From: Bacteroidetes/Chlorobi group bacterium ChocPot_Mid
GTDB lineage: Bacteria > Bacteroidota > Ignavibacteria > Kapaibacteriales > UBA2268
Assembly (NCBI GenBank): GCA_003731675.1
Contig: RCNQ01000145.1
Location: forward strand, 1-34,318
Length of the DNA stretch: 34,318 nt
Direction of reading: 5' to 3'
A program made the translations under genes and the position numbers. Numbering within the stretch: position 1 is the stretch's first letter; every line of letters begins with the position of its first letter. Positions 3,118 to 28,419 of this stretch are shown piece by piece. The notes below the pieces were generated by a model, which saw nothing but the letters and a program-made list of their open reading frames with translations, ran no database searches and was not told where the DNA came from.

Positions 3118-3141
3118 TAGCAGGTCTGAACAATGAAAAAA

Positions 3142-3172
3142 GGGTTGCCGATTACGGCAACCCTTTTTTTTT
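3142..3172. terminator. Rho-independent terminator, probably bidirectional, between convergent genes
   Basis: GGGTTGCCG (3142-3150), loop ATTA, CGGCAACCC (3155-3163): a perfect 9-bp GC-rich stem followed by a T9 run, and preceded by an A6 run that gives a U-tract on the other strand. Confidence 0.85.
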
Positions 3173-3276
3173 AATATATCACTTAGTTTCTTTATCAAAC
3201 CTTTTTATCTTAAAATGGAGAAAAGATTGAAAATAACTAATAACCATGCAATACTAAAATTATGCTTACCACAAAA

Positions 3277-4467
3277 TTAACATCCTCCCACAACTCTCTT
3301 TTGAGTCTTCTTTACTGGTCCTGCCGATTTATTTTGTTTTATTAAATCAGGAATTATCTTACTTGCCCTCATTCTGAAACGATAAGTATATTTCTCTTCA
3401 TTAGTAGTTGTATCACTGGTAAATTTAGGCTCTAAAATTAATTTTCTAAATTCATTAAAACCACCTTTCAATACCCTAATATTTTTATATCCAAGCTCAC
3501 TTGCAATTATTGCATACTTTCTTTCAGTCAATTCATCATTAGATAAAAATATGTTCACCTTATGCCGTAAAGTCAACACCTTATTAGGCTCCTTCTCAAA
3601 CAAATTATCCAATAAAAATAATGTAGATTTAGGTAAATTCAATTGCTGGTATTCATTAGCAGACCTAAAATCAATTATCTGAATTCTTTTGTCATCACTC
3701 ATTATCCTGCAAGCAAGTTCATCAACTGTAATCTCATCGAGTTGATAAGATTTAACAATTTTTTTATCCTCAACCATTTTCAACAATGTTGCTTTTCTTT
3801 CCGGGAACATAAACGATGACAAAGCAATAAGCAACCCTATTACTCCTAAACTTAGATAATAAGGTGTAAACCGAATCACCGGCTTTTTTATCCCATTAAC
3901 TCGATTTTCAATTATTGACGTAAATACAAAAGCTAACAAAGCCGTAGCAGTTAGTAAAAAAGCAAATAATGACTGAGAAATCCCCAATGTCTCAAACATG
4001 CGTGGATTACCCCAATTAGCTGATTTGTATAATCCTTCAACAATAGGATATCCCTCCGCAAAAATCAGAACACCCAATACAGCACCACCAATAAAAATCA
4101 TAGCATCAATTTTCCCGATAGCTGCTGCACAAACGCTCGTTCCTGGACAAAATCCTCCAATCACAAACCCCAACCCCATAATCAAACCACCTATAATTGC
4201 AGACCACAGAAATGTAGGATTAATATAAATCAAACTAATATCTATCAAACCGAAATGTGCAAGTACCATAACACCAATCATGGCAACAACCCCGGCAGTA
4301 AAGAATACTCTTAATACCGTGAAGTCATAACCATAAAACAATCCGACTAATTTCTTCGATGTCGAAAAGCCTGCTTGTTCAAGAATTGCTCCGAAAAATA
4401 TACCAATTATCAGAGCAACTATGAAATTCAAGTCATTACTAATTATATCAGGAACTAATGGTCCCAT
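3277..4467 (-). CDS. YeeE/YedE-family sulfur-compound transporter half fused to a C-terminal rhodanese-like domain that lacks the catalytic Cys
   Basis: The N-terminal ~220 aa are multi-TM and carry the YeeE/YedE signature GGFCPGTSVCAAA. Residues ~245-340 (IQIIDFRSANEY...RVLKGGFNEF) look rhodanese-like. The active-site loop reads IFLSNDELTER, with Ser309 (codon 3541-3543) where Cys is expected. The protein ends ...KRVVGGC. SD AAGGAGA lies 8 nt upstream of the ATG. Confidence 0.8.
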   Translation of the reverse strand: MGPLVPDIISNDLNFIVALIIGIFFGAILEQAGFSTSKKLVGLFYGYDFTVLRVFFTAGVVAMIGVMVLAHFGLIDISLIYINPTFLWSAIIGGLIMGLGFVIGGFCPGTSVCAAAIGKIDAMIFIGGAVLGVLIFAEGYPIVEGLYKSANWGNPRMFETLGISQSLFAFLLTATALLAFVFTSIIENRVNGIKKPVIRFTPYYLSLGVIGLLIALSSFMFPERKATLLKMVEDKKIVKSYQLDEITVDELACRIMSDDKRIQIIDFRSANEYQQLNLPKSTLFLLDNLFEKEPNKVLTLRHKVNIFLSNDELTERKYAIIASELGYKNIRVLKGGFNEFRKLILEPKFTSDTTTNEEKYTYRFRMRASKIIPDLIKQNKSAGPVKKTQKRVVGGC

Positions 4468-4482
4468 TGTATTATCTCCTTA

Positions 4483-4998
4483 TCATATCCAAAATTTTCT
4501 AAAAAAATAAGCAAATCCATAAGCTCCACCGAATATTGCGAACATTGTAATAATACCTCCGGTGGACATTACTGCCATGCCACTTAAAGCCGCACCACTT
4601 GTGCAACCCCTGCCAAGTTGAGAACCAAACCCCCAGAGCAAACCTCCAATAATTGCCCCAAAAACCCTTATTCTATTTGTTGTCCTTGGACCTTTCTCTA
4701 ACTTAAAATTCAATCGGTTTGAAATCAATCCCGAAATAAAAGCACCAATTAATACTCCCACAATTTCAAAAACTAACCAATTCATCAATGGGCTTCCAGA
4801 ATGCTCCCCCGAATACTCCTTATAAAACTTTGCTGTTTGTGTATGTTCTGGAGCTACTGTTTCAACTGTAGCTACAGTAAAACTTTTGATAGCTCCACTT
4901 GCACCTAACCCTCTACCGGTAATGTAAATCGTTGCAACAAGTAAAATGCCCAACAAAACACCTGCAAGGTAAGGATTCATATATTGTTTCTCTTCCAT
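4483..4998 (-). CDS. YeeE/YedE-family sulfur-compound transporter half
   Basis: 171-aa polytopic membrane protein with the second YeeE/YedE signature GRGCTSGAALSG. It lies 15 nt upstream of the other half and 2 nt downstream of the cytochrome b gene. Confidence 0.8.
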   Translation of the reverse strand: MEEKQYMNPYLAGVLLGILLVATIYITGRGLGASGAIKSFTVATVETVAPEHTQTAKFYKEYSGEHSGSPLMNWLVFEIVGVLIGAFISGLISNRLNFKLEKGPRTTNRIRVFGAIIGGLLWGFGSQLGRGCTSGAALSGMAVMSTGGIITMFAIFGGAYGFAYFFRKFWI

Positions 4999-5000
4999 AT

Positions 5001-5675
5001 CTATTTATCCTCCAAAATTGTTTTATTTTCATCAGCTAATTCCTCTTTCTTCTCTTCACCATCTTCATTTTCCAATTCTTCGTATCCAGTCAACATCGCT
5101 TTTAAATTCGAAGTAATTGTTTCGCCTGTTGTTATCAAATATAAATGAACAACTATAAAAGCAATCAGAATAAAAGCGGCTAAAGTATGCAAAACAGCTA
5201 TAATTTCTAACGATTCAATATTCATCGCTTGTACCCCATGTCTGGTTGGATACCTGTAAAACATATAAAATAAACCCGAAGTTACTATCACAGGAATCAC
5301 AATAATCTTTAATCCGAAATACGTTAATTTCTGCAGTGGATTCAGCTTGCTCAACACAGTCTTTTTTGTCGGATGTGGAGCATTCTTAAAAATTCCAAAA
5401 ATATAATAATTCAACTGAGCTTTAATATTCTTCAAAGTCGGTATATATTGCTTCCATTCACCTGTGGTGAAATGCCAAAATATCGCAAAAACAATAAGAA
5501 TTAAAAACATATACGCTGCTATTGTGTGATATCTCACAGCATCCCTAAATCCAAAAAAACTATATACCCCATGGATTTCAAAACCAGAAAATGCTAAAAA
5601 GAAAATCAACAAAGCTTGCATCCAATGCCAAAAACGCTCAAATGACTTATATACCAAAAACAATTTTTTACTCAT
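5001..5675 (-). CDS. b-type cytochrome membrane subunit (Ni/Fe-hydrogenase / PhsC / FdnI-like cytochrome b family)
   Basis: FERFWHWMQALLIFFLAFSGFEIHG is the N-terminal motif of the cytochrome b561/Ni_hydr_CYTB type. There are four hydrophobic helices with conserved His (HW, HT, HF, HL). ATGA start/stop overlap with the octahaem gene. Confidence 0.75.
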   Translation of the reverse strand: MSKKLFLVYKSFERFWHWMQALLIFFLAFSGFEIHGVYSFFGFRDAVRYHTIAAYMFLILIVFAIFWHFTTGEWKQYIPTLKNIKAQLNYYIFGIFKNAPHPTKKTVLSKLNPLQKLTYFGLKIIVIPVIVTSGLFYMFYRYPTRHGVQAMNIESLEIIAVLHTLAAFILIAFIVVHLYLITTGETITSNLKAMLTGYEELENEDGEEKKEELADENKTILEDK

Positions 5676-7246
5676 TTGACACCTCTCTTATCCTTAAATG
5701 AATTAATAACTCTCAATGCACCATGAACAAATACCCCAGCAAATGATGCAACGATTAATAATAGTCCTAATACTTCAACCGGCTTTGAATAATCCCTCCC
5801 AGGCATATAAAAGTCAGTCAATCCGGCAAGTCTCGAATTATTGCGAGTATGACACTCACTACATTTCACTGCATTCTCTTTTGGAGAAACCATATGATTT
5901 ATAGGCCAATACATCACAGTCTCAATAAAAGACACCTTACCGCTAAATGGCAAATTTGCATCTCTCATTCCTACCTCAGATGCAGTTTGCCAGTTGAAAT
6001 CTTTCCAAAAAGCTCCTTCTCCTTTATTCTCAGCAAAAAGCTTTGGCTGTATTAAAATTCTGTTTACCGGGTCATAAGGTTGCTTGGCTTTATGAATTTT
6101 GACAGGAACAATTTTGGATTCATCATCTGAATATGAACCATTCAATTTATTCAATACCAAAGGTTTTGAAGTATCTTCAATTTTATCCCCTTCCAAGTAA
6201 TGAGTAGCTGTCCCATTGAACCAGATATAATCAGGCTTTACATTTTTCTTCCAAATGAACTTTCCTTTAATTGACATATAAGCATGATTGCCCATACTAT
6301 CTTCTTCCACATAAGGTTCACCATTTCTCAATTTCCCTGCTTGTGACCAATCCCAATACATTTTTGTAGCATTTACTTTTGCATAAGTCGGTATGTGACA
6401 ACTCTCACAAGCAACTTTTAGAGTATGCTTATTCAACATATCATCATCATGAGGGTTATTCGTATGACATTGCTCACAATTATTACGATTTGTACATGTT
6501 GATGCCATTGAAAACAACTTCCCGGAAATAACATGTTTTTCAGTTAAATGACAATCAACACACTGCATATTCATACCATCAGTCCCCATATGCACATCAA
6601 CATCCCTTGTTGGTTCAAACATCGACATCTCCAGGTCTCCATGCTTGACATTGTTGCCTCCACCACCATAAAAATGACACACTCCACAATTTGTCCGTTT
6701 AGGTTTGCCAACATTCTCAGCAATTTTATTAAAATCCAACGTAGCAACCGGAGCTCCACCTTTTTCCTGAGCTTTCACGTAGGTTTCAGTATTGTCATGA
6801 CATACCAAACAATCTATATTAGATGAATCCGTATAAATTTTTCCCTTGGCATCCATACCAAACCCTATATGACACTTAGCACAACTTTCTTCATTCCCCT
6901 TAGTACCAATGCAGAAATTATTTATAGCATTCTTCTTACCAATATATACTATTCCACGCCCCTGAATATATTCTTCTCTTTCCCAGTTCCAGTGATTGGA
7001 CTTCATAATTTCCTTATGCCTTTGATTATGACAGCTAATGCAAGCCAATGTAATCTGTTGAGGAGTAGTGAACTTCTGCTGCAGAATTGCAAATTTAGAA
7101 TGGTCAACCGAAGAAGTAATCTTTTTTGAATATTTCTCCTTCAGTTTCATTAAAGTAGTTGGTTCATATTCATTTTGAGACAAAACCCCAAAAGCAATAA
7201 TAATTATTAAACCAACTAATGCCAATACAACCACTATTTTCTTCAT
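5672..7246 (-). CDS. otr: Octahaem c-type cytochrome, tetrathionate reductase (Otr) family, with an N-terminal signal/anchor and a C-terminal TM helix
   Basis: Eight CXXCH motifs: CISCH, CAKCH, CLVCH, CGVCH, CVDCH, CEQCH, CESCH, CSECH. The N-terminal block CISCHNQ..IMKSNHWNWE...NNFCIGTKGNEESCAKCHIGFG resembles the Otr family as I remember it. Hydrophobic N-terminus MKKIVVVLALVGLIIIIAFGVL and C-terminal helix LGLLLIVASFAGVFVHGAL. Confidence 0.75.
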   Translation of the reverse strand: MKKIVVVLALVGLIIIIAFGVLSQNEYEPTTLMKLKEKYSKKITSSVDHSKFAILQQKFTTPQQITLACISCHNQRHKEIMKSNHWNWEREEYIQGRGIVYIGKKNAINNFCIGTKGNEESCAKCHIGFGMDAKGKIYTDSSNIDCLVCHDNTETYVKAQEKGGAPVATLDFNKIAENVGKPKRTNCGVCHFYGGGGNNVKHGDLEMSMFEPTRDVDVHMGTDGMNMQCVDCHLTEKHVISGKLFSMASTCTNRNNCEQCHTNNPHDDDMLNKHTLKVACESCHIPTYAKVNATKMYWDWSQAGKLRNGEPYVEEDSMGNHAYMSIKGKFIWKKNVKPDYIWFNGTATHYLEGDKIEDTSKPLVLNKLNGSYSDDESKIVPVKIHKAKQPYDPVNRILIQPKLFAENKGEGAFWKDFNWQTASEVGMRDANLPFSGKVSFIETVMYWPINHMVSPKENAVKCSECHTRNNSRLAGLTDFYMPGRDYSKPVEVLGLLLIVASFAGVFVHGALRVINSFKDKRGVK

Positions 7247-7411
7247 ATTTTTTAACCCTTATATCTTATCTTTTAAAAATAAAAAAGACTTTCAATAATT
7301 AATACAACAAACGGTTACAAAAATACCAAGATATTTGTAAATCCCAAAAATAAAAAGAAATATTAAAATGAATTAACCTTTTTTATAGAGAAAAGTCATA
7401 CAAAAATGTCG

Positions 7412-7445
7412 TTCTATGTTGCAAAAATACACTTACAACATAGAA
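7412..7445. repeat. Perfect 10-bp inverted repeat TTCTATGTTG-N14-CAACATAGAA between the two respiratory operons; candidate weak terminator or operator
   Basis: Read directly: 7412-7421 is the reverse complement of 7436-7445. It lies 39 nt downstream of the stop of the NrfD-cytochrome gene on the minus strand. A T5 run follows 5 nt after the stem on the minus strand. Function is not established. Confidence 0.4.
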
Positions 7446-7483
7446 TTAAAATACTTTTTTATTTTAGAAAATATTCTAAAAAA

Positions 7484-9397
7484 TTATTTATCAAACCTGT
7501 TTGGTAAAACAACCCATTTATTATTTTCAAATTTTTCAAATAATTTTCTTTCGTAGATAAACTTCTGTACTTCAAAATGGCATTTTGAGCATTTTGTTAG
7601 ATTCGGATTATTAATTTTAATAAGAGAATCAGTTTTTAATTTTTCCTCATGACAACCAATACACATTTTGTGCAAAGCATCTGTATATGATAAAGTGATA
7701 TATGACTTAATTTCTTTTATTTTTGAATCTGAAGGGATAAGTTGCTTATGACATTTCTCGCATTTTTTAACTGCAAGATTTTTATTTTGAGAACTTTCGG
7801 ATTTTATATTTCTGAATTCAAATCCCTTACTAATATTTTTATTGTGACATTCAAAGCAGGACAAGTTTGCTCCTTGAGATGAACTATGCCAGTTATGTCT
7901 GAAAGCATCACCTTCCTGATACATATAACTGTGGCATTCATAACATCCTGTCGCTTTATCTCCAGGTTTATTCATGTGATGACATTGACCACAACTTATG
8001 CCCTTTTGCTGATGAAAAACATGTTTAAACGCAACACCATAGTTATTCCTGTTACCATCAATGAGCAGTGTATCTGCGCCTCTTGCCTTACTTACTTCAG
8101 TGCTGTCAATTCCCTTCTTCTCAAGTTTTGTCCCTGATATCAACGCAAAGCTCAAAGCAAATGCAAGAACAAACATAAACGAAAATTTTGTTCTGTTAAC
8201 AACTTTGGTCGGTCCCAAATAAATATTGAAAGAATTAAATTTCGGTTTAACTTTTGCAGGAGCATCAGGGTCTTCCGGAGTATGCTCCCATACTTTGAAA
8301 TTTTCGATAAAGAAGAAAAACGCCAACATTGCAAGCGATACTACTCCTGCAGAAATAAATATCTCCATCCATGATGGAAAATAAAATTTACCTATTTCTG
8401 AAAGATTATTTAGATGTGTTAATCCACCAACATTTAACCTGTTAAATACAATTCCGGTTACTCCAGAGAGTGCCGCTATGTAAAGAAAATTGATACTCCT
8501 GGATAATTTGGGGACAGATAGAATTATTAAAGGAATAATCACAGAAATGAAAATTTCCATCCAGAACAAATATGTGCCCCAAGCATTATCATACAAGAAA
8601 ATTCCTGCTCCTCTGAAAATTATGTCTCCAAATCTAAATGCAGAATAAATTCCAATCATCCACAGAGCATACTTTCTCAGCTTTATTAAAATATGATTTT
8701 CAGGTTCTCTCTTATATAGCCAGCTTGTCGTCATGCTTTCAACCATAACCATCATTAAACCAAGATAGATAGCAGAGATAAAGAAAATCAATGGAATTAT
8801 AGGTGAATACCATAATGGATGTAATCTGTAAGGCATTGCTAAAAACAAACTACCTAAAGAAGATTGATGCAACGTTGAGAGCATAATTCCCAAGATAACT
8901 AAAGGTATTCTGATTTTAAATAATACCTTATGAATTTTAGCCAACAATGGGATATTTGGATATTTTTCAAGAACAACTGGTGTAAATTCCAATGTCAGTA
9001 CAGTTAAATAAAGCATTACACACCAGCCAACTTCAAACAAAGGTGAATGAGGATTCCAATAAATAATCAAATGCCAAATATTCCACGGTAGTCCAAGGTC
9101 AAACAACAAACCAACGGCAACAGCAACGTAGCCCAAAAAAGCTGTTAAAATAGCCGCTCTTGATATAGGATGTAACTCCTTCTTCCCAAAAATATAATTA
9201 AATGCCGCTATTACAAATCCGCCTGCTGCAAGAGCAACTCCACCCATAACATCAAACCCAATCCAAAAACCCCACGGGGAATTATCTGTAAGGTTTGTTG
9301 TTACTCCTAATCCATAAATAAATCTTGTAACAGCAACAGCAGATGCAACCCCAAGAATTATCCATAATACAAGTTTTGCCTTACTTATTCTATTCAT
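7484..9397 (-). CDS. NrfD/PsrC/HmcC/DsrP-family integral membrane quinone-interacting subunit fused to a C-terminal hexahaem cytochrome c3-like domain
   Basis: The N-terminal ~400 aa are polytopic with the NrfD-type motif SPWGFWIGFDVMGGVALAAGGF. After an extra TM helix (FSFMFVLAFALSFALISG) there are six CXXCH motifs (CGQCHH, CYECH, CFECH, CEKCH, CIGCH, CSKCH). The first sits in a c3-type context, FKHVFHQQKGISCGQCHH. I prefer the start at ATG 9397 (MNRISKAK...), which has GGGAGG 6-7 nt upstream, over the ORF-track start at 9421. Confidence 0.8.
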   Translation of the reverse strand: MNRISKAKLVLWIILGVASAVAVTRFIYGLGVTTNLTDNSPWGFWIGFDVMGGVALAAGGFVIAAFNYIFGKKELHPISRAAILTAFLGYVAVAVGLLFDLGLPWNIWHLIIYWNPHSPLFEVGWCVMLYLTVLTLEFTPVVLEKYPNIPLLAKIHKVLFKIRIPLVILGIMLSTLHQSSLGSLFLAMPYRLHPLWYSPIIPLIFFISAIYLGLMMVMVESMTTSWLYKREPENHILIKLRKYALWMIGIYSAFRFGDIIFRGAGIFLYDNAWGTYLFWMEIFISVIIPLIILSVPKLSRSINFLYIAALSGVTGIVFNRLNVGGLTHLNNLSEIGKFYFPSWMEIFISAGVVSLAMLAFFFFIENFKVWEHTPEDPDAPAKVKPKFNSFNIYLGPTKVVNRTKFSFMFVLAFALSFALISGTKLEKKGIDSTEVSKARGADTLLIDGNRNNYGVAFKHVFHQQKGISCGQCHHMNKPGDKATGCYECHSYMYQEGDAFRHNWHSSSQGANLSCFECHNKNISKGFEFRNIKSESSQNKNLAVKKCEKCHKQLIPSDSKIKEIKSYITLSYTDALHKMCIGCHEEKLKTDSLIKINNPNLTKCSKCHFEVQKFIYERKLFEKFENNKWVVLPNRFDK

Positions 9398-10232
9398 TTT
9401 TACCTCCCTCTTCCAAGTCATTCATATCTGGTTTTGGATTATCCGAACTTTTTTTCTCTTCCTGTTCCTGACGTCTTTTTATTACCCAATAAGTGCCTGT
9501 CATTACTGCTCCCATTCCCAAGAAAGCGAAAGGTACTGCTCCCATTGCCCATTTGGTTGTATTTGGTAATGGTTCATTTATATCAGGATTACCAACTAAA
9601 TTTCTTCCTTTATCGAGTCTGTGATTATAATAGAATAAAAAGTCGAGAGGACAATCCTTAGAAGTTATATATAAGACATTTGTTCCACCAACTTCTTTTT
9701 CACCATAAATATGGTTCATATATTTTTGTGGTTCATTCGCTATTCTCCTCTTTGCTTCAGCCAGTAACTCATTTCTTTCACCAAATATTGTTGCTCCCGT
9801 AGGACAAGCTGAAGTACATGCTGGTTCTTTTATTTTCCCTTCCTTAATATTATAATAACAAAGAATACATTTTTTTATATAAGGGACAGCATTTTCCCAA
9901 TCATATCTTGGAATACCAAAAGGACAAGCCATCATGCAATACCTGCAACCAAGACATTTCTCCTTATCATAAATCACAGCTCCCATCTCGGTTTTATGCA
10001 AAGCACCGACAGGACATACCGAAGCACAAGCAGGTTCAACGCAATGTCTGCATTGTTTCCTGACAAAATATTTTTGATTAGATAACACGGAAGTCCAGTT
10101 GTTGGCAGATAGTCCGTCATTTTTCTGCCATTCCCTTGGCTTATCGGGAGGTAAATTATTGATTACTTTGCATGCATTAACACATTCAGCACAACCGATG
10201 CATTTTGTTATATCTGTTAATATTGCTTTCAT
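9390..10232 (-). CDS. Four-cluster [4Fe-4S] ferredoxin subunit (PsrB/NrfC/HmcB/DsrO family) with a C-terminal TM anchor and no N-terminal signal peptide
   Basis: Four Cys clusters: CIGCAECVNAC, CRHCVEPACASVCP, CLGCRYCMMACP and CILC...CTSACP. C-terminal helix AMGAVPFAFLGMGAVMTGTYWVI is followed by KRR. The N-terminus starts directly at MKAILTDITKCIGC, with no twin-arginine motif. ATGA overlap with the upstream gene. Confidence 0.8.
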   Translation of the reverse strand: MKAILTDITKCIGCAECVNACKVINNLPPDKPREWQKNDGLSANNWTSVLSNQKYFVRKQCRHCVEPACASVCPVGALHKTEMGAVIYDKEKCLGCRYCMMACPFGIPRYDWENAVPYIKKCILCYYNIKEGKIKEPACTSACPTGATIFGERNELLAEAKRRIANEPQKYMNHIYGEKEVGGTNVLYITSKDCPLDFLFYYNHRLDKGRNLVGNPDINEPLPNTTKWAMGAVPFAFLGMGAVMTGTYWVIKRRQEQEEKKSSDNPKPDMNDLEEGGKNE

Positions 10233-10942
10233 ATCGGTTCTCCTTCCTTGCCTAAAGCAATTGTTACTTCTTCTGGTGAATCAGGTGCAAATTTCCAGCT
10301 TCTCGCTGTTATCCATTGACTAATCGGCATCAAAATACAATGAGCAATTTTTGTAAAAGGTAATAGTACAAAAATCAACTCTCCACTCAATATATGTGCT
10401 AACAAAAATGCTTTGTAAGAGTCTGGATTCAATACTGAATTTCCACAAATAAATCCTGAAATGAAAGGGATAATTAGAAGAATAGGCCAAATAAAATCTT
10501 GTTTTCGGCTAATACTCCTCGATGCTCTATTCGAAACTCTCAAAACTAATATAATCAACCCAAAAACAATCGTAAGCAAGGTCAACCAATCAGCCAAACT
10601 CTTAGACAAAGTCAGCCCAAGCCAACTTACACCAATTGAATTTTCAAATAACAGAGCATGGTCAAACAATAAAATAGGGGTAAAAAGTAAACCGAAATGA
10701 AATATTATTGAAACCACACTATACAACGGTTTCACTCTTAGCGACCTTATTGGAAAAACGAATCCGAAAGTCAGTTTCATTACATAATTCATTGGTAATT
10801 TTTTTTCTCTTGATTTACCTTTTGCTTCAAAACCGTTGATAATTGAAAGAATCAACACTCTTGCCAATCCAAGTAGCATAATTGCAAATGTAAATCTAAA
10901 CAGAGGTCCTTTTGCAAATTCTAACCAAGCATCCATATACAT
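10229..10942 (-). CDS. NarI/DsrM/HmcE-like membrane b-cytochrome subunit
   Basis: 237 aa with about 5 TM helices and conserved His in the helices (IIFHFGLLF, FDHALLF, LLAHILSG, KIAHCIL). Its position next to a CCG-domain Fe-S protein is typical of DsrMK/HmcEF-type modules. Confidence 0.65.
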   Translation of the reverse strand: MYMDAWLEFAKGPLFRFTFAIMLLGLARVLILSIINGFEAKGKSREKKLPMNYVMKLTFGFVFPIRSLRVKPLYSVVSIIFHFGLLFTPILLFDHALLFENSIGVSWLGLTLSKSLADWLTLLTIVFGLIILVLRVSNRASRSISRKQDFIWPILLIIPFISGFICGNSVLNPDSYKAFLLAHILSGELIFVLLPFTKIAHCILMPISQWITARSWKFAPDSPEEVTIALGKEGEPI

Positions 10943-11004
10943 TCCCTTACTTTATTTTTTATTTATCTTTGTTTTTCAAACTATTTCAATCATTTCTGTA
11001 ACAA

Positions 11005-12384
11005 TTATTTATCAAAAATAATTGCTTTTAAAATTAAGTCATGCAAACCAACTAACTCACCATCAACTTTATTGTCTTCCATTAATTCTCTGAATTGCTT
11101 CTTGCAATTAGCACATGGAGCAACTACCCAATGGGCTCCTGTATCGATTATTTGTTGTGCTTTTCTTCTTCCACCTACAGAAGTTCTATATTTTCTTATT
11201 TCATCAATAGAAACAGTGCCACCTCCACCTCCGCAACAATAATTTTCACTTCTGTTTGGTGTCATTTCAACAAAATCTTTGCAGAAAGATTTCAGAATTT
11301 CTCTCGGTTGCTCGATTATCCTTGATTGTCTTGCTATATTGCACGGGTCGTGGTATGTCACTCTTTCGGTAACCACATTAGGGTCAAGTTTTATCTTGCC
11401 TTCTTTAATTAATTTATGTGTTAATTCAATGCAATGAACAATCTCAGGTGGATTTCCGCCTTCCCAGTAAGTTGGCATAAACCATGCACTTCGTGTTGCG
11501 TGCCCGCATTCACCCATAAGTATTTTCTTACATTTTAGTCTTTTAAATTCTTCTGCAATGACCAAAAGATTTCTTTTTAAAATTGCATCACTGTAAAATA
11601 AACCATAATTTATTGCATCATTTACTTTTGAACTCATTGTCCAGTTTACTCCCCCGGCACTCATAGCACAAGCTATACCCATCAAAGATTCAGCTTCCAT
11701 TAGCCAATCCGAAACCGGAGTAATAAACATATATTCCGCACCTTCAACATCAATAGGAAATTTAACATCAACTCCATGCATTTCTTTAATTTCTTCTTCC
11801 AGGAATTCTATTGAATCAGCCATACCAATCCACGGAATAGCAGATGTGTTCCTTGTCTTGCCTTCTAACTGTTCTCGTGTGGATATTAATAATGCTCTTG
11901 GCACCAAATCCATTTCAGCCATTATATAGCGTGCAAGATGTGTTAATAAACCATGGTCTATACCCATAGGACATTCCAAAACGCATTTTCTGCAAGCAGT
12001 ACATTTCCAAAAAGATTCTGCCATCTCATCAATATCTTCTTCTTTGAGTTCATAGCCACCGAATAATCTTCCGTATATTGAACCTTCAAGAGAAAAATAT
12101 CTTCTGTAAATTCTCAATAAAAGTTCCGAACGATAACATGGTATATCCTTAGGGTCTTGAGTTACCTGATAAATATGGCAGGCAACACTACATCTTGAAC
12201 ATTTTGCAGATATTTTTACATATTGCTCTAAGATTGGTCTGTAGTTTGAATGCTTAAGAATCACTGCAAAAATCTCTAAAAATCTTTTGACCCTATCTCC
12301 TTTCGGTGGTTTTTCAATGATATATTTCATTTCAGGAGTTGTTTTACCTTCTGCTTTATTCCAAATATTTTTTTCTTTAAACAT
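11005..12384 (-). CDS. HdrD/DsrK/HmcF-like iron-sulfur protein with CCG domains (heterodisulfide-reductase-like catalytic subunit)
   Basis: Ferredoxin-type motifs CSRCSVAC and CTACRKCVLECP. C-terminal CCG-type motifs HDPCNIAR...NYCCGGGGG...APCANCKKQF, and an earlier GECGHATRS-containing repeat. No TM segment or signal peptide. Confidence 0.75.
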   Translation of the reverse strand: MFKEKNIWNKAEGKTTPEMKYIIEKPPKGDRVKRFLEIFAVILKHSNYRPILEQYVKISAKCSRCSVACHIYQVTQDPKDIPCYRSELLLRIYRRYFSLEGSIYGRLFGGYELKEEDIDEMAESFWKCTACRKCVLECPMGIDHGLLTHLARYIMAEMDLVPRALLISTREQLEGKTRNTSAIPWIGMADSIEFLEEEIKEMHGVDVKFPIDVEGAEYMFITPVSDWLMEAESLMGIACAMSAGGVNWTMSSKVNDAINYGLFYSDAILKRNLLVIAEEFKRLKCKKILMGECGHATRSAWFMPTYWEGGNPPEIVHCIELTHKLIKEGKIKLDPNVVTERVTYHDPCNIARQSRIIEQPREILKSFCKDFVEMTPNRSENYCCGGGGGTVSIDEIRKYRTSVGGRRKAQQIIDTGAHWVVAPCANCKKQFRELMEDNKVDGELVGLHDLILKAIIFDK

Positions 12385-12810
12385 AGAGTACCATTTATTT
12401 TGTTTTACATCTTATTCTTAATTCTACACAAGTATTTGAAATTATATTTTTCAATGCTTGAATTTATCTTAAATATTTTCAAACAAATTTATCATAGATT
12501 TTTTTTATATAAGCATTTAAAAACGAAAAAATAAAATTATGTACTCTATGTGTAGCAGATATAAGTAATATATTTATTAAGTATTTGCTAAATAATGAAT
12601 ATGATTTAATCATATTTCCAAACATAAAATTTTGATTTGAAAATTATGTTTCAATGACTTACTAAGATATTTATGAATATCTGTTCATTTTACTGTACAT
12701 TGAATAACCATATTTTAATGATAAATACTTTAAATCTGTCAAAAAAAGAAGATGTTAATAATAATCATCAGAATTTATTAAATTGTATTTATTAATTTGA
12801 TTGAAAAATT

Positions 12811-14607
12811 ATGAAAAAAGAAATCTCTAAATATATTGCAAATAATTTGTTCGATTTAGTACCTTATAATATTGCTATAATCGACAGAGAACATAATATC
12901 ATTGAAGCCAATAAAAACTTCCGTGAGTATTTTGGTAAAGAAGAAAAAAAGAAATGCTACGAAGTTTATAAAAACCATGGTAAGAAATGTCTCCATTGCC
13001 AAATAGACAGAGTTTTTGATTTTGGTGAAACTGTTGTTTCCAATGAATCAGGTATTGACAAAAATGGCAGAACATGTCATTACATCGTACACCTCGCACC
13101 CATAAGAAACGATAAAAATGAAATCAATTATGTCATTGAAATGTCGGTTGATATTACTGATACAACAAAGTTTCAGGAACAGTATAATCTGCTATTTGAA
13201 AAGGTTCCAAGTTATCTTACTATCATTGACAAGGATTTCAGAATTGTTCGTGCCAATAAAAAATTCCGTGATACTTTCGGTGACAGCAAAGGGAAAAAAT
13301 GTTATGAAGTTTATAAAAAGAGAAAAAGAAAATGCAGATATTGCCCTGCTTCACAAACTTTTAAAGATGGGGAGGAGCATATTTCAGCTGAAGTCGGAAA
13401 ATCTTTTTTAGGTACAGAAACACATTACATTGTCAACACTACTCCTCTTTCGACTACAAGAGAAGGTGTACAGTTGGTTATGGAAATTGCTACAGATATT
13501 TCCGAGCTACATCAATTAGAAGAACAATTACGCAAAGCTCATGACTTTTATGCATCATTAATTGAAAATGCAGAGGATGGTATTATTGCAATTAATGAAA
13601 ATAATAAAGTAGAAGTAATGAATCGCTCGGCAAAAAATATACTTGAATGGGAGTCATTTAAAAAACCTGTTATAAGCCAGCTTAAGGAAATGCTACCTGC
13701 TGAATTTTTTGATGACAATGACATTGATTCAAATACTAAACTAAACGAAACCATAATTAGAACAATCAACGGAAAACAAATTCCTGTGAAATTTAATACA
13801 CTTCATTTGTCAAGTAAGAAGAAGTCCATTGGCAAGGTTGCTTTTATACAGGATTTACGTTCAATCATAGAACTTGAAAAACAAAAGCTTGAAGCCGAAA
13901 GATTAGGAGCTGTCGGGCAAACAGTTGCAGGTTTGGCTCATACAATCAAAAATCTTCTTATGGGACTTGAAGGTGGTATGTATATTGTTGATATTGGGCT
14001 TCGCAAAGGTGATGCTTCAAGAATTGTTGAAGGCTGGGAAATCCTACAAAAGAATTTTTATAAAACAACTAATCTTGTAAAAGGTTTCTTATCATTTGCT
14101 AAAGGAAAATTGCCTGCTTTGACACTGACTAATCCCAATAAAATAATCGAAGATATTATTGAATTATATAAAGAAACTGCAAAAAGTCAGAATGTGAATC
14201 TAATCGCAGATTTACAAGATAACATAAAACCTGCCTTGCTTGACCCTGAGGGCATGGAAGCTTGTCTTACAAATTTATTATCGAATGCTATTGACGCCGC
14301 TGTTCTCAGGGAAGATAAAAAAGGTCAGGTTATTCTTAGAACAAGAGATGATGGTGATAATATAATTTTTGAAGTTACAGATAATGGTTCTGGTATGGAA
14401 GCAGAAGTTTTGAAAAATGTTTTTACAACTTTTTTCACAACCAAAGGTTCAAAAGGTACAGGATTAGGTTTACTTACAACAAATAAAATAATTATCGAAC
14501 ATGGTGGTAAAATCGAAGTCGAATCTGATGTAGGAATTGGTTCAACTTTTAAGATAACATTATCAAGAAAAAAACTTGAACTCCTCGCTAAGGAAATTAT
14601 CAAATAA
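12811..14607 (+). CDS. Soluble multi-PAS sensor histidine kinase; the first two PAS domains carry a C-x10-C-x2-C cysteine triad
   Basis: No TM segments. There are three PAS-like units. Cys motifs are KKCYEVYKNHGKKCLHCQ (C49/C60/C63, plus C89 in TCHY) and KKCYEVYKKRKRKCRYCP (C164/C175/C178). H-box GLAHTIKNLL, N-box NLLSNAIDA, G1 DNGSGM, G2 TKGSKGTGLGL. Confidence 0.9.
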   Translation: MKKEISKYIANNLFDLVPYNIAIIDREHNIIEANKNFREYFGKEEKKKCYEVYKNHGKKCLHCQIDRVFDFGETVVSNESGIDKNGRTCHYIVHLAPIRNDKNEINYVIEMSVDITDTTKFQEQYNLLFEKVPSYLTIIDKDFRIVRANKKFRDTFGDSKGKKCYEVYKKRKRKCRYCPASQTFKDGEEHISAEVGKSFLGTETHYIVNTTPLSTTREGVQLVMEIATDISELHQLEEQLRKAHDFYASLIENAEDGIIAINENNKVEVMNRSAKNILEWESFKKPVISQLKEMLPAEFFDDNDIDSNTKLNETIIRTINGKQIPVKFNTLHLSSKKKSIGKVAFIQDLRSIIELEKQKLEAERLGAVGQTVAGLAHTIKNLLMGLEGGMYIVDIGLRKGDASRIVEGWEILQKNFYKTTNLVKGFLSFAKGKLPALTLTNPNKIIEDIIELYKETAKSQNVNLIADLQDNIKPALLDPEGMEACLTNLLSNAIDAAVLREDKKGQVILRTRDDGDNIIFEVTDNGSGMEAEVLKNVFTTFFTTKGSKGTGLGLLTTNKIIIEHGGKIEVESDVGIGSTFKITLSRKKLELLAKEIIK

Positions 14608-14626
14608 TATAAATAGGAGAGATGCA

Positions 14627-15163
14627 ATGAATAAAAATTATGAAAAAAAAGTTCTTGTTGTAGATGATGAAGCTGACGTTAGAAACTATTTAAGTTCAGC
14701 TTTAAAGGAATACGGCTTCAACGTTGAGACTGCAAGTGATGGTTTTGAAGCACTTGAATCTATTAAAAAGGAGATTCCCGATTTAATTTCGCTTGACTTA
14801 GTAATGCCAAAGCACTCTGGTATAAAATTTTACAGAGATTTACAGAAAAACAAAGAATGGGCTAAAATACCTGTACTGATTGTTACCGGACATGCAAGAG
14901 ATGATTTAGGCAAAGTTGATTTTGATACAATGATGATGCAAGGTCCCGGAGTTTACCTCGAAAAACCTGTGAAACCAGAAAACTATATCGAAACTGTTTG
15001 CCAGTTGCTGAATATTGAGATACCTGATGAACTAAAAAACAGAGAAAAGAGTATTGACACAGATGAACTTAGGTCTAAACTTGCTCAAACTCTGGCTGGA
15101 GCCGATGCGGATACTTTAAAAAAAGCTCTGGAATTGCTGGATAAAAAAAATGAGAAACAATAG
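14627..15163 (+). CDS. Single-domain (receiver-only) response regulator with a ~55-aa helical, acidic C-terminal tail
   Basis: VLVVDDEADV...LISLDLVMP...VTGH...YLEKPV are the receiver signature residues. There is no DNA-binding or enzymatic output domain. I prefer the start at ATG 14627, with AGGAGA at 14615-14620, over the ORF-track start at 14576, which overlaps the kinase. Confidence 0.85.
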   Translation: MNKNYEKKVLVVDDEADVRNYLSSALKEYGFNVETASDGFEALESIKKEIPDLISLDLVMPKHSGIKFYRDLQKNKEWAKIPVLIVTGHARDDLGKVDFDTMMMQGPGVYLEKPVKPENYIETVCQLLNIEIPDELKNREKSIDTDELRSKLAQTLAGADADTLKKALELLDKKNEKQ

Positions 15164-15184
15164 CTTTAAAATAATTAACCAAAA

Positions 15185-15562
15185 ATGAACAAAAAAATTT
15201 TAATTGTTGATGACGAACCAGATGTTGTTTCGTACCTTAACGCTTTTTTAAACGATAATGGATTCGATACAATCTCTGCAAAAAATGGAAAAGAATGTTT
15301 TGCAATCGCAAAATCTGAAAAACCAGATTTAATCACACTCGATATTACAATGCCTGAAGAATCCGGAGTTAGAGCATTTCGCAATTTAAAGGAATGCAAA
15401 GAAACAAAAAATATACCTGTCATTATTATTACTGGTGTTACAACTGATTTTCAGGAATTTTTAGGGTCAAGGAAGAATATCGAACCACCTGCGGCTTACT
15501 TCGAAAAGCCAATAGATAGAAATGATTTCTTGAAAAAAGTGTTGGAAATATTCAAATTATAA
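15185..15562 (+). CDS. CheY-like receiver-only response regulator
   Basis: 125 aa with ILIVDDEPDV...LITLDITMP...ITGV...YFEKPI. It is a paralogue of the preceding receiver. Confidence 0.9.
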   Translation: MNKKILIVDDEPDVVSYLNAFLNDNGFDTISAKNGKECFAIAKSEKPDLITLDITMPEESGVRAFRNLKECKETKNIPVIIITGVTTDFQEFLGSRKNIEPPAAYFEKPIDRNDFLKKVLEIFKL

Positions 15563-15590
15563 CACTTGAGATATTTTTTCAAAATTAATT

Positions 15591-15637
15591 TTGTCATATG
15601 CCAATAATTACTTAAATTTGTAATTAGCATATGACAA
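15591..15637. promoter_or_regulatory. Long inverted repeat TTGTCATATGC...GCATATGACAA with an inner TAATTAC/GTAATTA pair, upstream of the DUF134 gene; candidate operator and/or terminator hairpin
   Basis: 15591-15601 is the exact reverse complement of 15627-15637 (11 bp). The inner 7-bp arms pair too, with a 3-nt bulge. It lies 25 nt upstream of the DUF134 ATG and 29 nt after the stop of the second receiver gene. Confidence 0.45.
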
Positions 15638-15661
15638 TAATTAAAAAAAAGGAATGAAAAA

Positions 15662-16153
15662 ATGCCAAGACCACATAAATGTAGAAGGATATCATCTAAC
15701 CCTGATGTAGTTTATTTTAAACCGGCAGGGCTGAGAATAAAGGAGCTTGAGGAAATATCTTTAACTTTAGATGAATATGAAGCTATACGACTGGCAGATT
15801 ATGAAGGATTGTATCAGGAAAATGCCGCCGAAAAAATGAATATTTCCAGACAAACTTTTGGAAATATTATTAATTCTGCACATCAGAAAATAGCAGATTT
15901 CCTACTTAATGCAAAAGTTTTAGTAATCAAAGGAGGTGTCATTGAAATATTAAATGAAAAAAATAAAAAGTTCAGATGTAAAGAATGTAACAATACTTTC
16001 AAGAGAAATATTAATACATTTAATACAATCAATTGTCCAAGATGTAAAAGTTCCGAAGTACATCAAATTAGTCTTTATGAAAATTTTGAATTTAAAAATC
16101 AAAGAAGAAAAAGAATGTGTAAAAGAAACAGGGAAGATGAAGATGAAAAATAA
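15662..16153 (+). CDS. DUF134 (UPF0251) family predicted DNA-binding protein with an added C-terminal zinc ribbon and a basic tail
   Basis: [10 protein letters not shown]...YFKPAG...[48 protein letters not shown] is the characteristic DUF134 sequence with a sigma-70 region-4-like HTH. The C-terminal CKECNN...CPRCKS forms a C4 zinc ribbon. Confidence 0.85.
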
Positions 16154-16322
16154 TATGGGAAAAGGGGGTTTTTGTATCTGTCCGAAATGTGGTCAAAAAT
16201 TACCACACGAATCAGGTGTCCCTTGCCAACAAGTGTATTGTCCAAATTGTAATGTAAAAATGTTGAGAGAAGGTTCTGAACACCATTTACTATGGCTAAA
16301 TAAAAAAACGAAAAATAAATAA
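16137..16322 (+). CDS. Small C4 zinc-ribbon protein ([18 protein letters not shown]....CPNCN..M.RE type); start uncertain
   Basis: Candidate starts are ATG 16137, 16143 and 16155. The ORF-track start at 15954 would overlap the DUF134 gene by 200 nt. The conserved-looking core begins at [40 protein letters not shown] recall similar mini-proteins next to DUF134/NifX-like genes in anaerobes, from memory only. Confidence 0.6.
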
Positions 16323-16353
16323 CAAATTATATTTAAAATTTAAGGATATAGAA

Positions 16354-16725
16354 ATGATTATTTGTGTTCCAACAGACGAGCCCAAAGGATTAGATTCAAT
16401 GGCTTACGGGCATTTTGGCAGTGCTCCGTATTTTATTATTTACAATACTTTGACTAATAATTATGAAGTAGTTAATAATGGCAATGCAGTGCATGAGCAT
16501 GGTCAATGCAATCCCGTACAACCTTTATTAGAGAAAAAAGTTGAAGTCGTTGTTGTTGCAGGAATGGGTGCCAGAGCATTATCAAATCTGAATTCAATGG
16601 GGATTCGTGTTTACAGAACAATCGAAGAAAAAAATATTAAAGATATTATTTCAGAGATTAACAATAATAAAATGAAGGAACTAACACTTAACGATAGTTG
16701 TGGTGGACATCATAACTGCAATTAA
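16354..16725 (+). CDS. NifB/NifX/NafY-family cofactor-binding domain protein (dinitrogenase FeMo-cofactor-binding fold) with a Cys/His-rich C-terminal tail
   Basis: MIICVPTDEPKG...HFGSAPYFIIYN...VVVAGMGARALSNLNSMGIRVY is typical of the stand-alone NifX_NifB domain. The tail is DSCGGHHNCN. RBS AAGGA lies upstream. Confidence 0.8.
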   Translation: MIICVPTDEPKGLDSMAYGHFGSAPYFIIYNTLTNNYEVVNNGNAVHEHGQCNPVQPLLEKKVEVVVVAGMGARALSNLNSMGIRVYRTIEEKNIKDIISEINNNKMKELTLNDSCGGHHNCN

Positions 16726-16748
16726 TTGAGTTCCAAATTAAATCAAAT

Positions 16749-16778
16749 GGGGCTGTCTCTTGTTGATGAAACAGCCCC
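16749..16778. terminator. Hairpin terminator between convergent genes
   Basis: GGGGCTGT (16749-16756), 14-nt loop, ACAGCCCC (16771-16778). The flanking runs are A/T-rich but there is no long clean U-tract on either strand. Confidence 0.55.
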
Positions 16779-16809
16779 AAAATTATTTATAATATGAATT
16801 ATTAAAAGT

Positions 16810-27768: not shown

Positions 27769-28419
27769 TTATAACGGTTTATCGTCAGGTATCAATGTGA
27801 AGTAATCAGTTGTGGAATCCTGATGAATTTGTAATACTCCAGCTCTGACAAGTCTTACAATCAACTGAGAAGCCCTCCTTTTAGAGATATTACATAGTCT
27901 TGAAAAATCCATGACAGTTACCTTAGGATGAATATTCAAATACTCCAGAAGTCTTTTTTCATTTTTTCCGATACTTAATTTAAGTGATTTAGCATCAGGA
28001 TTCATACCCTCCATTACTTTTACCATCTCCCTGCTTGCTATAACTGATTGTTCACCAACTCTAATATAAGCATTACTGTCTTCTGTATTTATTACCTTAT
28101 GAGGTTTTTTCTTGCCTTCTGGTATTGTTACAACAACAATATCTTTCCAGTTTATTTCAATTATTTCTATTTCTGCTTCGACGGGTGGGTCAAGATAAAA
28201 TGCACAAGCTTCTTCTATATAGTCAATTTCTCCTTTTTCATTATCAACTCCATAAATTGAACCATCATCATCAACTCCGAAAATTAAATATCCACCTTTT
28301 GTATTAGCCAATGCTGATATTTCCTTAGCAATTTTCTCAGGTGTTGTAAACTTTCTTTTAAATTCAGTTGTCGTTGACTCTCCTTCAAAAATAATATCTT
28401 TCAATTCAAGATAATCCAC
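27769..28419 (-). CDS. AlbA_2 (Schlafen-like, divergent AAA_4) domain protein with a C-terminal winged-HTH; putative nucleic-acid-binding regulator
   Basis: EGESTTTEFKRKF...ALANTKGGYLIFGVDDDGSI is the AlbA_2 signature. The C-terminal LLEYLNIHPKVTVMDFSRLCNISKRRASQLIVRLVRAGVL is HTH-like. Confidence 0.7.
   Translation of the reverse strand: MDYLELKDIIFEGESTTTEFKRKFTTPEKIAKEISALANTKGGYLIFGVDDDGSIYGVDNEKGEIDYIEEACAFYLDPPVEAEIEIIEINWKDIVVVTIPEGKKKPHKVINTEDSNAYIRVGEQSVIASREMVKVMEGMNPDAKSLKLSIGKNEKRLLEYLNIHPKVTVMDFSRLCNISKRRASQLIVRLVRAGVLQIHQDSTTDYFTLIPDDKPL

Follow-up and report, generated by a model that had tools for sequence, protein, structure and literature searches.

An uncultured, low guanine-plus-cytosine (low-GC) genome of the Ignavibacteriota, that of Bacteroidetes/Chlorobi group bacterium ChocPot_Mid, harbours a sharply bounded group of genes for anaerobic respiration and sensing at positions 3277 to 16725 of contig RCNQ01000145.1 (assembly GCA_003731675.1). 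Positions follow the numbering of the window, the whole stretch of 34,318 nucleotides (nt) that was analysed. Three modules make up the block. Module A (7246 to 3277, minus strand) encodes an octahaem cytochrome c of the Otr family, a membrane cytochrome b and two YeeE/YedE half genes, the second of which continues into a rhodanese-like domain ending in Gly-Gly-Cys (rhodanese-GGC). Module B (12384 to 7484, minus strand, plus 12811 to 15562, plus strand) encodes a transmembrane complex of Hmc/Dsr type, a histidine kinase and two receivers, and module C (15662 to 16725, plus strand) a DUF134 protein, a zinc-ribbon protein and a NifX-like protein, preceded by a palindromic operator-like site of its own. 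We think it probable that this stretch is a lineage-specific juxtaposition of the three modules, and neither a single ancestral pathway nor a transferred island. Each module resembles kinds that are already known; the new lead is the trio of split YeeE halves and rhodanese-GGC, and its fixed link to Otr makes it a worthwhile and testable one on the role of Otr in vivo.

Gene calls in the block were based on an open reading frame (ORF) map and on Pfam and NCBIfam scans. All genes and coordinates listed in an earlier, sequence-only reading of this DNA were recovered, together with one gene that it had missed, a zinc-ribbon ORF of 59 amino acids (aa) in module C. That reading had taken the block for a self-contained unit and had staked this on its sub-clusters not occurring independently; largely, they do, the Otr cassette being found alone and the Hmc-like operon being found without Otr. 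A scan anchored on the HmcC-cytochrome fusion of module B gave 45 genome loci, in which genes were mapped by tblastn (L001, L054 and the like are labels for the genome loci of relatives used in the comparisons). The order HmcF-E-B-C::cytochrome was kept in L002-L013, L015 and L042, which are Ignavibacteria-like and Acidobacteria-labelled metagenome-assembled genomes (MAGs) with 45-86% protein identity, while L001 and L014 are truncated at contig ends in this operon comparison. The Hmc-like operon was without Otr in at least 14 MAGs (L001-L009, L011-L015 and L042), and among the mapped loci the Otr cassette adjoined it only in L010. The kinase and receivers adjoin the Hmc-like operon in L003, L004, L010, L011, L013 and L042, in three different arrangements.

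Look-ups anchored on Otr gave seven loci, and the order otr, cytochrome b and two YeeE genes was the same in all of them. The Otr cassette was without Hmc-like genes or a kinase within 10 kb in L050-L053 and L055-L057, and in four of the seven Otr-anchored loci a MarR (L050, L056) or MerR gene (L052, L055) lies directly upstream, at 71-74% identity or, for L055, 82%. A DsrE gene stands beside the cassette in L056. The homologue lists of Otr and of the YeeE-rhodanese protein have many identical longest-contig sizes in common, which fits constant linkage. In L047, L054 and L055 the DUF134, zinc-ribbon and NifX set comes after the Otr cassette, and in L001 (86% protein identity) DUF134 comes directly after the Hmc-like operon, with no Otr cassette there. 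The three modules adjoin each other only in close relatives and are likely to have been inherited separately. Several of the TPA_asm MAG records in these comparisons (L001, L002, L005-L009 and L011) are titled 'uncultured Hyphomicrobiales', yet the gene order of these low-GC loci matches that of genomes labelled Ignavibacteria (60-86% protein identity), and the taxonomic titles look wrong.

The block had also been read as a single regulated pathway. Of this claim the sulfur and redox theme has held, as has the synteny of the whole block in the nearest relatives, whereas the separate occurrence of the modules elsewhere speaks against it. Spelled out, such a pathway would have Otr reduce a periplasmic sulfur compound, YeeE import the product and the DsrK-like subunit of module B reduce a cytoplasmic persulfide or disulfide carrier, with the kinase, receivers and DUF134 protein in control of it all. 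We consider this rather unlikely, in spite of a full block that is kept in four independent assemblies: it is syntenic at 76-79% nucleotide identity in L054/L010, L047-49 and L058, and L046, an independent Joint Genome Institute (JGI) assembly, has the arrangement of the window at 99.4% nucleotide identity. Relative to L047 and L054, an inversion has turned the 12.3-kb segment from kinase to YeeE (window 3277-15540) around in one piece, so that DUF134-NifX, which follows YeeE in those relatives, now comes after the second receiver. In L047 the Hmc-like operon and otr are 51 nt apart, which suggests read-through transcription from the operon into otr, but the distance is 237-255 nt in the window and L054; in the window the 237-nt gap is AT-rich and holds a terminator-like hairpin (-15.8 kcal/mol, z = -3.9) that is not conserved, the L047 gap being so short. 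The Otr cassette of the window's clade lacks a MarR or MerR regulator, having lost the one seen elsewhere, a DUF134-type palindrome precedes both otr and DUF134 in L054, and the DUF134-NifX module of relatives holds sulfur-related genes (for a Cys/Met-metabolism pyridoxal phosphate (PLP) enzyme, a peroxiredoxin and a metallo-beta-lactamase-fold protein), all of which would fit one pathway. The modules nevertheless occur independently in most relatives, with L001 lacking the Otr cassette, and in the window no operator common to the three promoter regions was found and the receivers have no DNA-binding output. A look-up of public sequencing runs for window 5672-9421, meant for co-expression, listed none. 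The GGC tail, if periplasmic, can moreover not be a substrate of the cytoplasmic DsrK-like subunit.

Table 1. Features of the block and its borders, in window coordinates.
Feature	Position	Strand	Basis
Intrinsic-terminator hairpin, bidirectional	3142..3172	.	GGGTTGCCG-ATTA-CGGCAACCC with A run and T run
YeeE/YedE second half (residues 1-190) plus rhodanese-like domain, 396 aa	3277..4467	-	Pfam Sulf_transp, Rhodanese
YeeE/YedE first half, 171 aa, PmpA-like, conserved GRGCTSG cysteine	4483..4998	-	Pfam Sulf_transp, profile positions 175-309
Membrane cytochrome b	5001..5675	-	PF01292, 100 bits
Octahaem Otr-family cytochrome c	5672..7246	-	TIGR04315, 570.5 bits (cutoff 375)
AU-rich terminator-like hairpin	7412..7445	-	In 237-nt gap from Hmc-like operon to otr; 14 pairs, then T run
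NrfD/HmcC-like quinone-interacting subunit fused to C-terminal hexahaem c3/c7-type domain	7484..9421	-	Pfam NrfD, Cytochrom_CIII
HmcB/HybA/DsrO-type protein, four [4Fe-4S] motifs, C-terminal hydrophobic anchor	9390..10232	-	Fer4_11
HmcE/TmcC/DsrM-type (NarI-like) membrane cytochrome b	10229..10942	-	Nitrate_red_gam; TmcC 107 bits, HmcE 105 bits
DsrK/HmcF/TmcB-type cytoplasmic Fe-S protein with CCG domain	11005..12384	-	Pfam CCG, Fer4_8
Divergent control region, 426 bp, 25% GC	12385..12810	.	Between Hmc-like and kinase operons
Soluble histidine kinase, three PAS domains	12811..14607	+	Pfam PAS_4, PAS_9, HATPase_c (83 bits)
Single-domain receiver, 178 aa, with C-terminal extension of ~50 aa	14627..15163	+	Response_reg
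CheY-like stand-alone receiver	15185..15562	+	Response_reg
Operator-like inverted repeat upstream of DUF134	15593..15636	.	GTCATATGCCAATAATTAC...GTAATTAGCATATGAC; hairpin -18.0 kcal/mol
DUF134 helix-turn-helix protein with C-terminal zinc ribbon	15662..16153	+	PF02001, 91 bits, and zinc-ribbon matches
59-aa protein, four Cys in zinc-ribbon pattern	16143..16322	+	Called gene in L046; weak zinc-ribbon Pfam matches
NifX/NifB-type (Nitro_FeMo-Co) cluster-binding protein, orange-protein-like	16354..16725	+	PF02579, 76 bits
Terminator hairpin	16748..16779	.	Between convergent NifX-like and BNR genes; 12 pairs, 7 G-C (terminator scan)

The Otr-family protein of module A is close in its main features to Otr of Shewanella oneidensis (SO_4144, PDB 1SP3), with which it aligns at 425 bits over residues 54-469. 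It has eight CxxCH motifs, scores above the TIGR04315 cutoff and keeps the lysine that serves as haem ligand, its GKKN motif aligning with RGKKN of 1SP3 (Lys56). Unlike the Shewanella protein, it carries hydrophobic N- and C-terminal membrane helices (residues 4-22 and 489-507), and its gene is part of a fixed cassette that also encodes a cytochrome b and the split YeeE importer bearing rhodanese-GGC. There is a 4-nt overlap between the cytochrome b gene and the otr stop codon. Among the NCBIfam models the cytochrome b scores best against PhsC, the cytochrome b subunit of thiosulfate reductase (103 bits, under the cutoff of 204), and it is presumed to be the quinol-oxidising partner of Otr. 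A pair of Otr and cytochrome b561 has already been noted in an Ignavibacteriae genome (PMC7509429). The combination of Otr, cytochrome b, split YeeE and rhodanese-GGC was not described in the literature that we found on Otr and YeeE.

Both YeeE halves match PF04143 (51.1 and 85.7 bits, cutoff 27). They are not TsuA equivalogs, as the transporter is split in two genes and scores 21-45 bits against cutoffs of 400-645. Conservation of the YeeE-rhodanese protein was followed in 121 homologue sequences, in all of which the channel motif FCPG (Cys107) is invariant; the GRGCTSG cysteine of the other half is kept in the window and in two Bacteroidota. These positions are putative equivalents of Cys91 and Cys293 of S. 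thermophila TsuA, by way of a weak profile match (6LEO, E = 0.08) and the published PmpAB mapping (PMC11582611). After residue 190 the protein continues with an extra membrane helix, a cysteine-less rhodanese fold and a Lys-rich arm that ends in ...KRVVGGC. The rhodanese domain scores 36.4 bits in Pfam (cutoff 22.2), is modelled by AlphaFold with a predicted local distance difference test score (pLDDT) of 80-90, followed by a disordered tail, and matches single-domain rhodaneses in Foldseek (TM-score 0.65-0.77, normalised to the target), while a sequence search of the PDB with the YeeE-rhodanese protein gave no match at E <= 0.01. The catalytic Cys of rhodaneses is absent, being replaced by Ser309 in the window and by Ala in 114 of the 121 homologues. 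After the Lys-rich arm, GGC forms the very C-terminus in 121/121, and the carrier-like tail proposed earlier is in this respect borne out.

Split YeeE heterodimers have been proposed for PmpA/PmpB (PMC11582611), and the two half-size genes of the window would form a heterodimer in the same way. They share the Sulf_transp family and probably the conserved channel cysteines (FCPG in one half, GRGCTSG in the other) with PmpA/PmpB and with YeeE/YeeD (TsuA/TsuB), but are longer than the Pmp halves, with 171 aa and ~190 aa against ~130 aa. YeeD gives a 'fourth cysteine' to YeeE (PMC11073785), and here too an accessory protein adds an extra cysteine; this partner, however, is not of TusA fold, as YeeD is, but a membrane-tethered, cysteine-less rhodanese with a Lys-rich GGC arm, probably periplasmic rather than cytoplasmic, which is fused to half 2 in the window and encoded by a separate gene in Bacteroidota. 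No TusA-like (YeeD) gene was found in the window. In SoxY a GGCGG cysteine carries sulfur (PMC6067878), and a glycine-flanked Cys at the extreme C-terminus of a flexible arm resembles it at the level of the motif. Rhodanese-GGC differs from SoxY in having a rhodanese and not an immunoglobulin-like fold, in being tethered to a transporter and in having no SoxZ partner, there being no sox genes in the window, and its loading with sulfur is putative.

When the C-terminal 172 residues of the YeeE-rhodanese protein were used for an exhaustive search without profiles, 268 representatives were obtained at E <= 1e-3. A Cys is found among the last three residues in 123 of the best 150 of these 268, and the C-terminal endings in the wider family include GGC, GGCG, GGCGV, GGCS and GGCE. 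Many members are of ~205 aa with a single N-terminal membrane helix, and these single-helix relatives have Ser at the position of the catalytic Cys (FYSNG motif). An uncharacterised protein family is hereby defined, with a rhodanese fold that is without its catalytic Cys and a C-terminal GGC. Unfused forms occur in cultured Bacteroidota. In Marinifilum fragile (L060, 5838-7621), YeeE half 1, half 2 and a single-helix rhodanese-GGC are separate genes and come directly after an operon that encodes a PhsA-like molybdoenzyme with Fe-S and NrfD proteins, and in Maribellus sediminis (L061, 5841-7612) the unfused trio stands alone. Half 1 of the window is 56-57% identical to half 1 of these two species, residues 1-189 of the 396-aa window protein are 47-51% identical to their separate half-2 genes and residues 246-396 are 31-34% identical to their single-helix rhodanese-GGC; from these identities the window protein is a fusion of the second and third genes of the trio. 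M. fragile has two rhodanese-GGC paralogues, of 206 and 204 aa.

The trio accordingly accompanies two non-homologous periplasm-facing reductases, Otr and the PhsA-like molybdoenzyme. In PhsABC/PsrABC operons with accessory sulfurtransferases a periplasm-facing sulfur-anion reductase is likewise found beside an accessory for sulfur transfer or import, although the reductase of the window is a multihaem cytochrome and not a molybdoenzyme. We put forward, with more doubt than conviction, that split YeeE and tethered rhodanese-GGC constitute a previously unrecognised, portable sulfur hand-off module, in which a periplasmic swinging-arm cysteine would capture anionic sulfur at a respiratory reductase and feed it to the importer, and which may have been recruited by Otr in Ignavibacteriota and by the PhsA-like enzyme in Marinifilum. 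Were this true, Otr would gain a physiological role in sulfur metabolism, namely tetrathionate or polythionate reduction coupled to sulfur import, and in the window's clade it may also be linked to the Hmc-like complex and the redox-sensing kinase. The constant four-gene setting of Otr, alongside a sulfur importer and a Cys arm of carrier type, makes the sulfur hypothesis testable, and the cultured M. fragile, with its trio beside an operon of thiosulfate/polysulfide-reductase type, offers a tractable organism for such tests.

Module B encodes homologues of HmcF/DsrK, HmcE/TmcC/DsrM, HmcB/DsrO and HmcC/DsrP together, as do the Hmc, Tmc and DsrMKJOP systems, and the Hmc/Dsr-type nature that had been ascribed to this operon is upheld by the Pfam and NCBIfam matches. 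The scores against the Hmc models were 223 bits for HmcB (cutoff 420), 292 for HmcC (550), 105 for HmcE (275) and 220 for HmcF (750), those for DsrK and DsrO were 303 (400) and 102 (200), and TmcC was also under its cutoff; since all lie below the curated cutoffs, the subunits are homologues and not equivalogs. The CCG domain of the Fe-S protein is heterodisulfide-reductase-like, and its pattern comprises Cys348, Cys383-Cys384 and Cys424-xx-Cys427. The HmcB-like protein has 16 Cys in its four cluster motifs, and the NrfD-like subunit has ~11 hydrophobic helices and 6 CxxCH motifs at residues 477-615, a fusion that is kept in L001-L015 and L042. In contrast to Hmc and DsrMKJOP, there is no 16-haem HmcA, HmcD or trihaem DsrJ, and in their place the NrfD-like subunit bears a fused hexahaem domain: neither HmcA as a separate gene nor an HmcD-like ORF was found among the window ORFs, and DsrJ, DsrC and DsrAB are absent from the window. 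The module further differs from Hmc/Tmc/Dsr in its gene order F-E-B-C, in an Fe-S subunit without a twin-arginine translocation (Tat) signal and in the linkage of the operon to a PAS kinase, and from the systems of sulfate reducers in that its host belongs to a non-sulfate-reducing lineage. An Hmc/Dsr-type complex with a fused cytochrome and a Cys-motif PAS kinase is thereby recorded outside the sulfate reducers. Genes that the window does not have are inserted within the Hmc-like operon of two relatives, for CGGC-domain and TrmO_N-like proteins in L047 (6287-7194) and for a TonB-dependent receptor and TrmO_N-like, unknown 181-aa and CGGC-domain proteins in L003 (4781-8468).

The kinase has no hydrophobic helix, in agreement with the cytoplasmic Cys-motif kinase suggested before. 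Its first two PAS domains (residues 49-90 and 164-205) each carry a C-x10-C-x2-C motif (KKCY-x8-C-x2-C), which does not vary among 8 kinases with identities as low as 42%; a His downstream of the motif is invariant in PAS1 and variable in PAS2. This pattern suggests a metal or Fe-S site of three Cys (plus His), and with it a redox sensor. A c-type haem PAS sensor was considered and rejected, as the CxxC motifs are not followed by His. With an ATPase domain, an H-box (AGLAHTIKN) that is kept in the 8 kinase orthologues and two adjacent receivers (Response_reg scores 80 and 75 bits), the genes have the make-up of a two-component system. Pfam detected Response_reg only on the receivers, and no DNA-binding or enzymatic output domain. 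The recurrent linkage of kinase and receivers to the Hmc-like operon suggests that the kinase controls this operon, and in L003 and L004 the HmcF-like gene is immediately preceded, on its own strand, by the orthologue of the second receiver. A metagenome scan with the kinase gave two loci only (L058, L059).

Comparison of the divergent control region between the Hmc-like and kinase operons with L054, L047 and L011 revealed the conserved blocks GTACAGTGAAAT, ATGATTAAA and GATTACATAAT, which are candidate binding sites of some other regulator, as neither receiver has a DNA-binding domain. The palindrome ATGATTTAATCAT is found among these blocks at ~12600-12612. An Rfam scan of the whole window gave zero families at the gathering score, hence no known riboswitch or leader in its long intergenic regions. 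Counts of sigma-70 promoter and terminator consensus in 1-20000 were not above those in shuffled sequence and were not used as evidence.

A scheme for modules A and B may be drawn from these features. Menaquinol would be oxidised by the cytochrome b of module A, judging from its family membership, and the electrons would pass to the membrane-anchored, periplasmic octahaem Otr. The two YeeE halves, the rhodanese fold and the Cys arm, together with the DsrE gene in L056 and the PhsA-linked trio in Marinifilum, lead us to infer that Otr would reduce an oxidised anion of sulfur, with tetrathionate or a similar polythionate or polysulfide as the likeliest substrate; the sulfur theme earlier read into the Otr/YeeE operon is upheld. 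The sulfur product would then be handed to the heterodimeric split YeeE channel, and the terminal Cys396 of the GGC arm may act in this as a SoxY-like swinging carrier that captures sulfur and hands it over. The rhodanese-GGC domain is probably periplasmic, to judge from the distribution of charges (basic N-termini in the single-helix relatives; an acidic N-terminus and acidic D-E loop, with basic A-B and E-F loops, in half 2) and from the homology of half 2 to the N-terminal half of YeeE. In module B, the Hmc/Tmc/Dsr-type complex would join its periplasmic hexahaem domain and the quinone pool to the cytoplasmic CCG thiol/disulfide site. It would probably be controlled by the adjacent soluble kinase through the two output-less receivers, with the Cys-motif PAS domains of the kinase as sensors of redox or metal state.

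Several points weigh against this scheme and against the separate inheritance of the modules. The periplasmic side of rhodanese-GGC would follow from charge reasoning and half-2 homology, and the Lys-rich arm and the precedent of the cytoplasmic YeeD would fit a cytoplasmic location. The membrane half of the YeeE-rhodanese protein is modelled by AlphaFold at pLDDT < 50, which makes it unusable for topology or for docking of the tail. In module B, homologues of HmcB/HybA/DsrO type are exported to the periplasm, and the partner hexahaem cytochrome domain must be periplasmic; the HmcB-like protein of the window, however, has no Tat or Sec signal and starts directly with its first cluster motif, with model matches that begin at profile positions 37-45, and the architecture of module B is therefore tentative. 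As to the substrate, the Otr of Shewanella also reduces nitrite and hydroxylamine in vitro. To our knowledge, Otr has neither a known natural substrate nor an agreed physiological function, though a crystal structure has existed since 2004. The Otr of an Ignavibacteriae genome has been described as a possible nitrite reductase (PMC7509429). Finally, the modules have stayed adjacent across ~22% divergence and through an inversion, and the palindrome before otr in L054 is found within the same clade, so a clade-specific functional coupling is possible.

The Otr cassette could instead act on nitrogen compounds or other oxyanions (nitrite, hydroxylamine, selenite), in detoxification or ammonification, with YeeE carrying a product other than sulfur. 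The in vitro activities of the family and the possible nitrite reductase just mentioned point in this direction, and stand-alone cassettes located behind MarR or MerR regulators of stress type, with a peroxiredoxin gene adjoining in L056, would agree with it. YedE relatives have furthermore been implicated in selenium transport (PMC11582611), and the YeeE halves have weak matches to the seleno_YedE and YedE/FdhT models. The genetic context is nevertheless consistently one of sulfur, in the YeeE channel cysteines, the rhodanese fold, the SoxY-like Cys tail and DsrE in L056, and in Marinifilum the YeeE/rhodanese-GGC trio follows a PhsA-like operon of thiosulfate/polysulfide-reductase type. We hold a nitrogen or oxyanion function to be improbable and retain a sulfur anion as the substrate in the proposed scheme.

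Module C is led by the DUF134 gene and the palindrome before it. A 20-bp palindrome, TTATTGGCA-N2-TGCCAATAA, is found upstream of DUF134 in L001 (3122-3141), L047 (14085-14104) and L054 (14032-14051), and in L054 again at 9899-9918, 83 nt upstream of otr. The inverted repeat of the window is a rearranged, double half-site version of this palindrome and occurs upstream of DUF134 only. The palindrome is a candidate operator of the DUF134 protein. An operator of DUF134 type was sought at the otr and HmcF/kinase promoters of the window and none was found, which leaves no operator common to the three promoter regions. A reading of the TTGGCA...TGCCAA palindrome as a sigma-54 promoter was rejected, as the spacing is wrong. 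A small ORF at the position of the 59-aa zinc-ribbon gene is present also in L047, L054 and L055. MrpORP has an Fe-S cluster bound to a domain of the Nitro_FeMo-Co type (PMC6345978), and module C is like the orange-protein (ORP) clusters in its small Nitro_FeMo-Co protein and in the ParA/Mrp-type ATPase that belongs to the same module in L055; unlike in these clusters, neither an Mrp ATPase nor a sigma-54 regulator is encoded in the window.

The DUF134-NifX module has gained further genes in relatives. A Cys/Met-metabolism PLP enzyme is found in L047 (14817-15998) and in L055 (9400-10629), where the module also holds a ParA/Mrp-type ATPase and the NifX-like gene is closely followed by one for a tyrosine integrase. 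In L054 (14904-16415) the additions are a metallo-beta-lactamase-fold protein and a 1-Cys peroxiredoxin.

The block had been described as an island bracketed by the two strongest terminators, and the bracketing hairpins are indeed the two most stable of the window when 44-nt hairpins were ranked over the whole 34 kb with 200 shuffles as control. The left hairpin is the most stable (-24.3 kcal/mol on the plus strand and -23.8 on the minus strand, z about -7.5 to -7.9) and the right one comes second (-22.4 to -23.6 kcal/mol, with -23.6 on the minus strand); 0/200 shuffles folded as well as either. The left hairpin separates the YeeE-rhodanese gene from a convergent gene for a surface protein with a type IX secretion system (T9SS) tail. 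Both hairpins stand where two genes converge, a position at which one would expect strong terminators that act in both directions, so the bracket alone marks no island, and the hairpins are ordinary terminators. Genome annotators may take from this that a block of genes with a common theme is not made an island by the strong terminators that frame it. The flanking genes are unrelated to the block, as had been stated, with the T9SS-tailed surface protein to the left and BNR/sortilin, radical-SAM, Lnt, FtsW, MurD and Def proteins to the right.

The composition of the block is that of the genome backbone. Its tetranucleotide usage correlates with that of the housekeeping part (16810 to window end) at r = 0.98, and GC at third codon positions (GC3) is 0.18-0.31 in the block genes and 0.19-0.28 in the housekeeping genes. 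A scan for tRNA genes as island hallmarks found none, nor were direct or inverted border repeats found at the block edges or an integrase or transposase among the gene family matches of the window. On these grounds of composition and missing hallmarks the block is not a transferred island, and a horizontally acquired element that moves as a unit is very improbable even though the flanking genes differ among the window, L054 and L047 and a tyrosine integrase adjoins the NifX-like gene in L055.

The sole compositionally foreign segment of the window is in the left flank, where the T9SS-tailed surface-protein gene (49-3117, plus strand) has a GC content of 44% against ~33% and a GC3 of 0.49 against ~0.25. 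Its tetranucleotide usage correlates with the rest of the window at r = 0.34, and its AT skew exceeds 0.3. The 218-kb JGI contig of L046, which is 99.4% identical to the block, stops at window position 3095, and an exact-protein look-up with the T9SS protein returned no record. These observations suggest that the gene is foreign, hypervariable or the product of a chimeric assembly join, with a junction near 3095-3140. Among the housekeeping genes of the right flank, a Schlafen/AlbA_2 protein with a MarR-type helix-turn-helix (27769-28419, minus strand) and a SIR2-family protein (31160-32002, plus strand) are encoded; both domain types occur in anti-phage defence systems.

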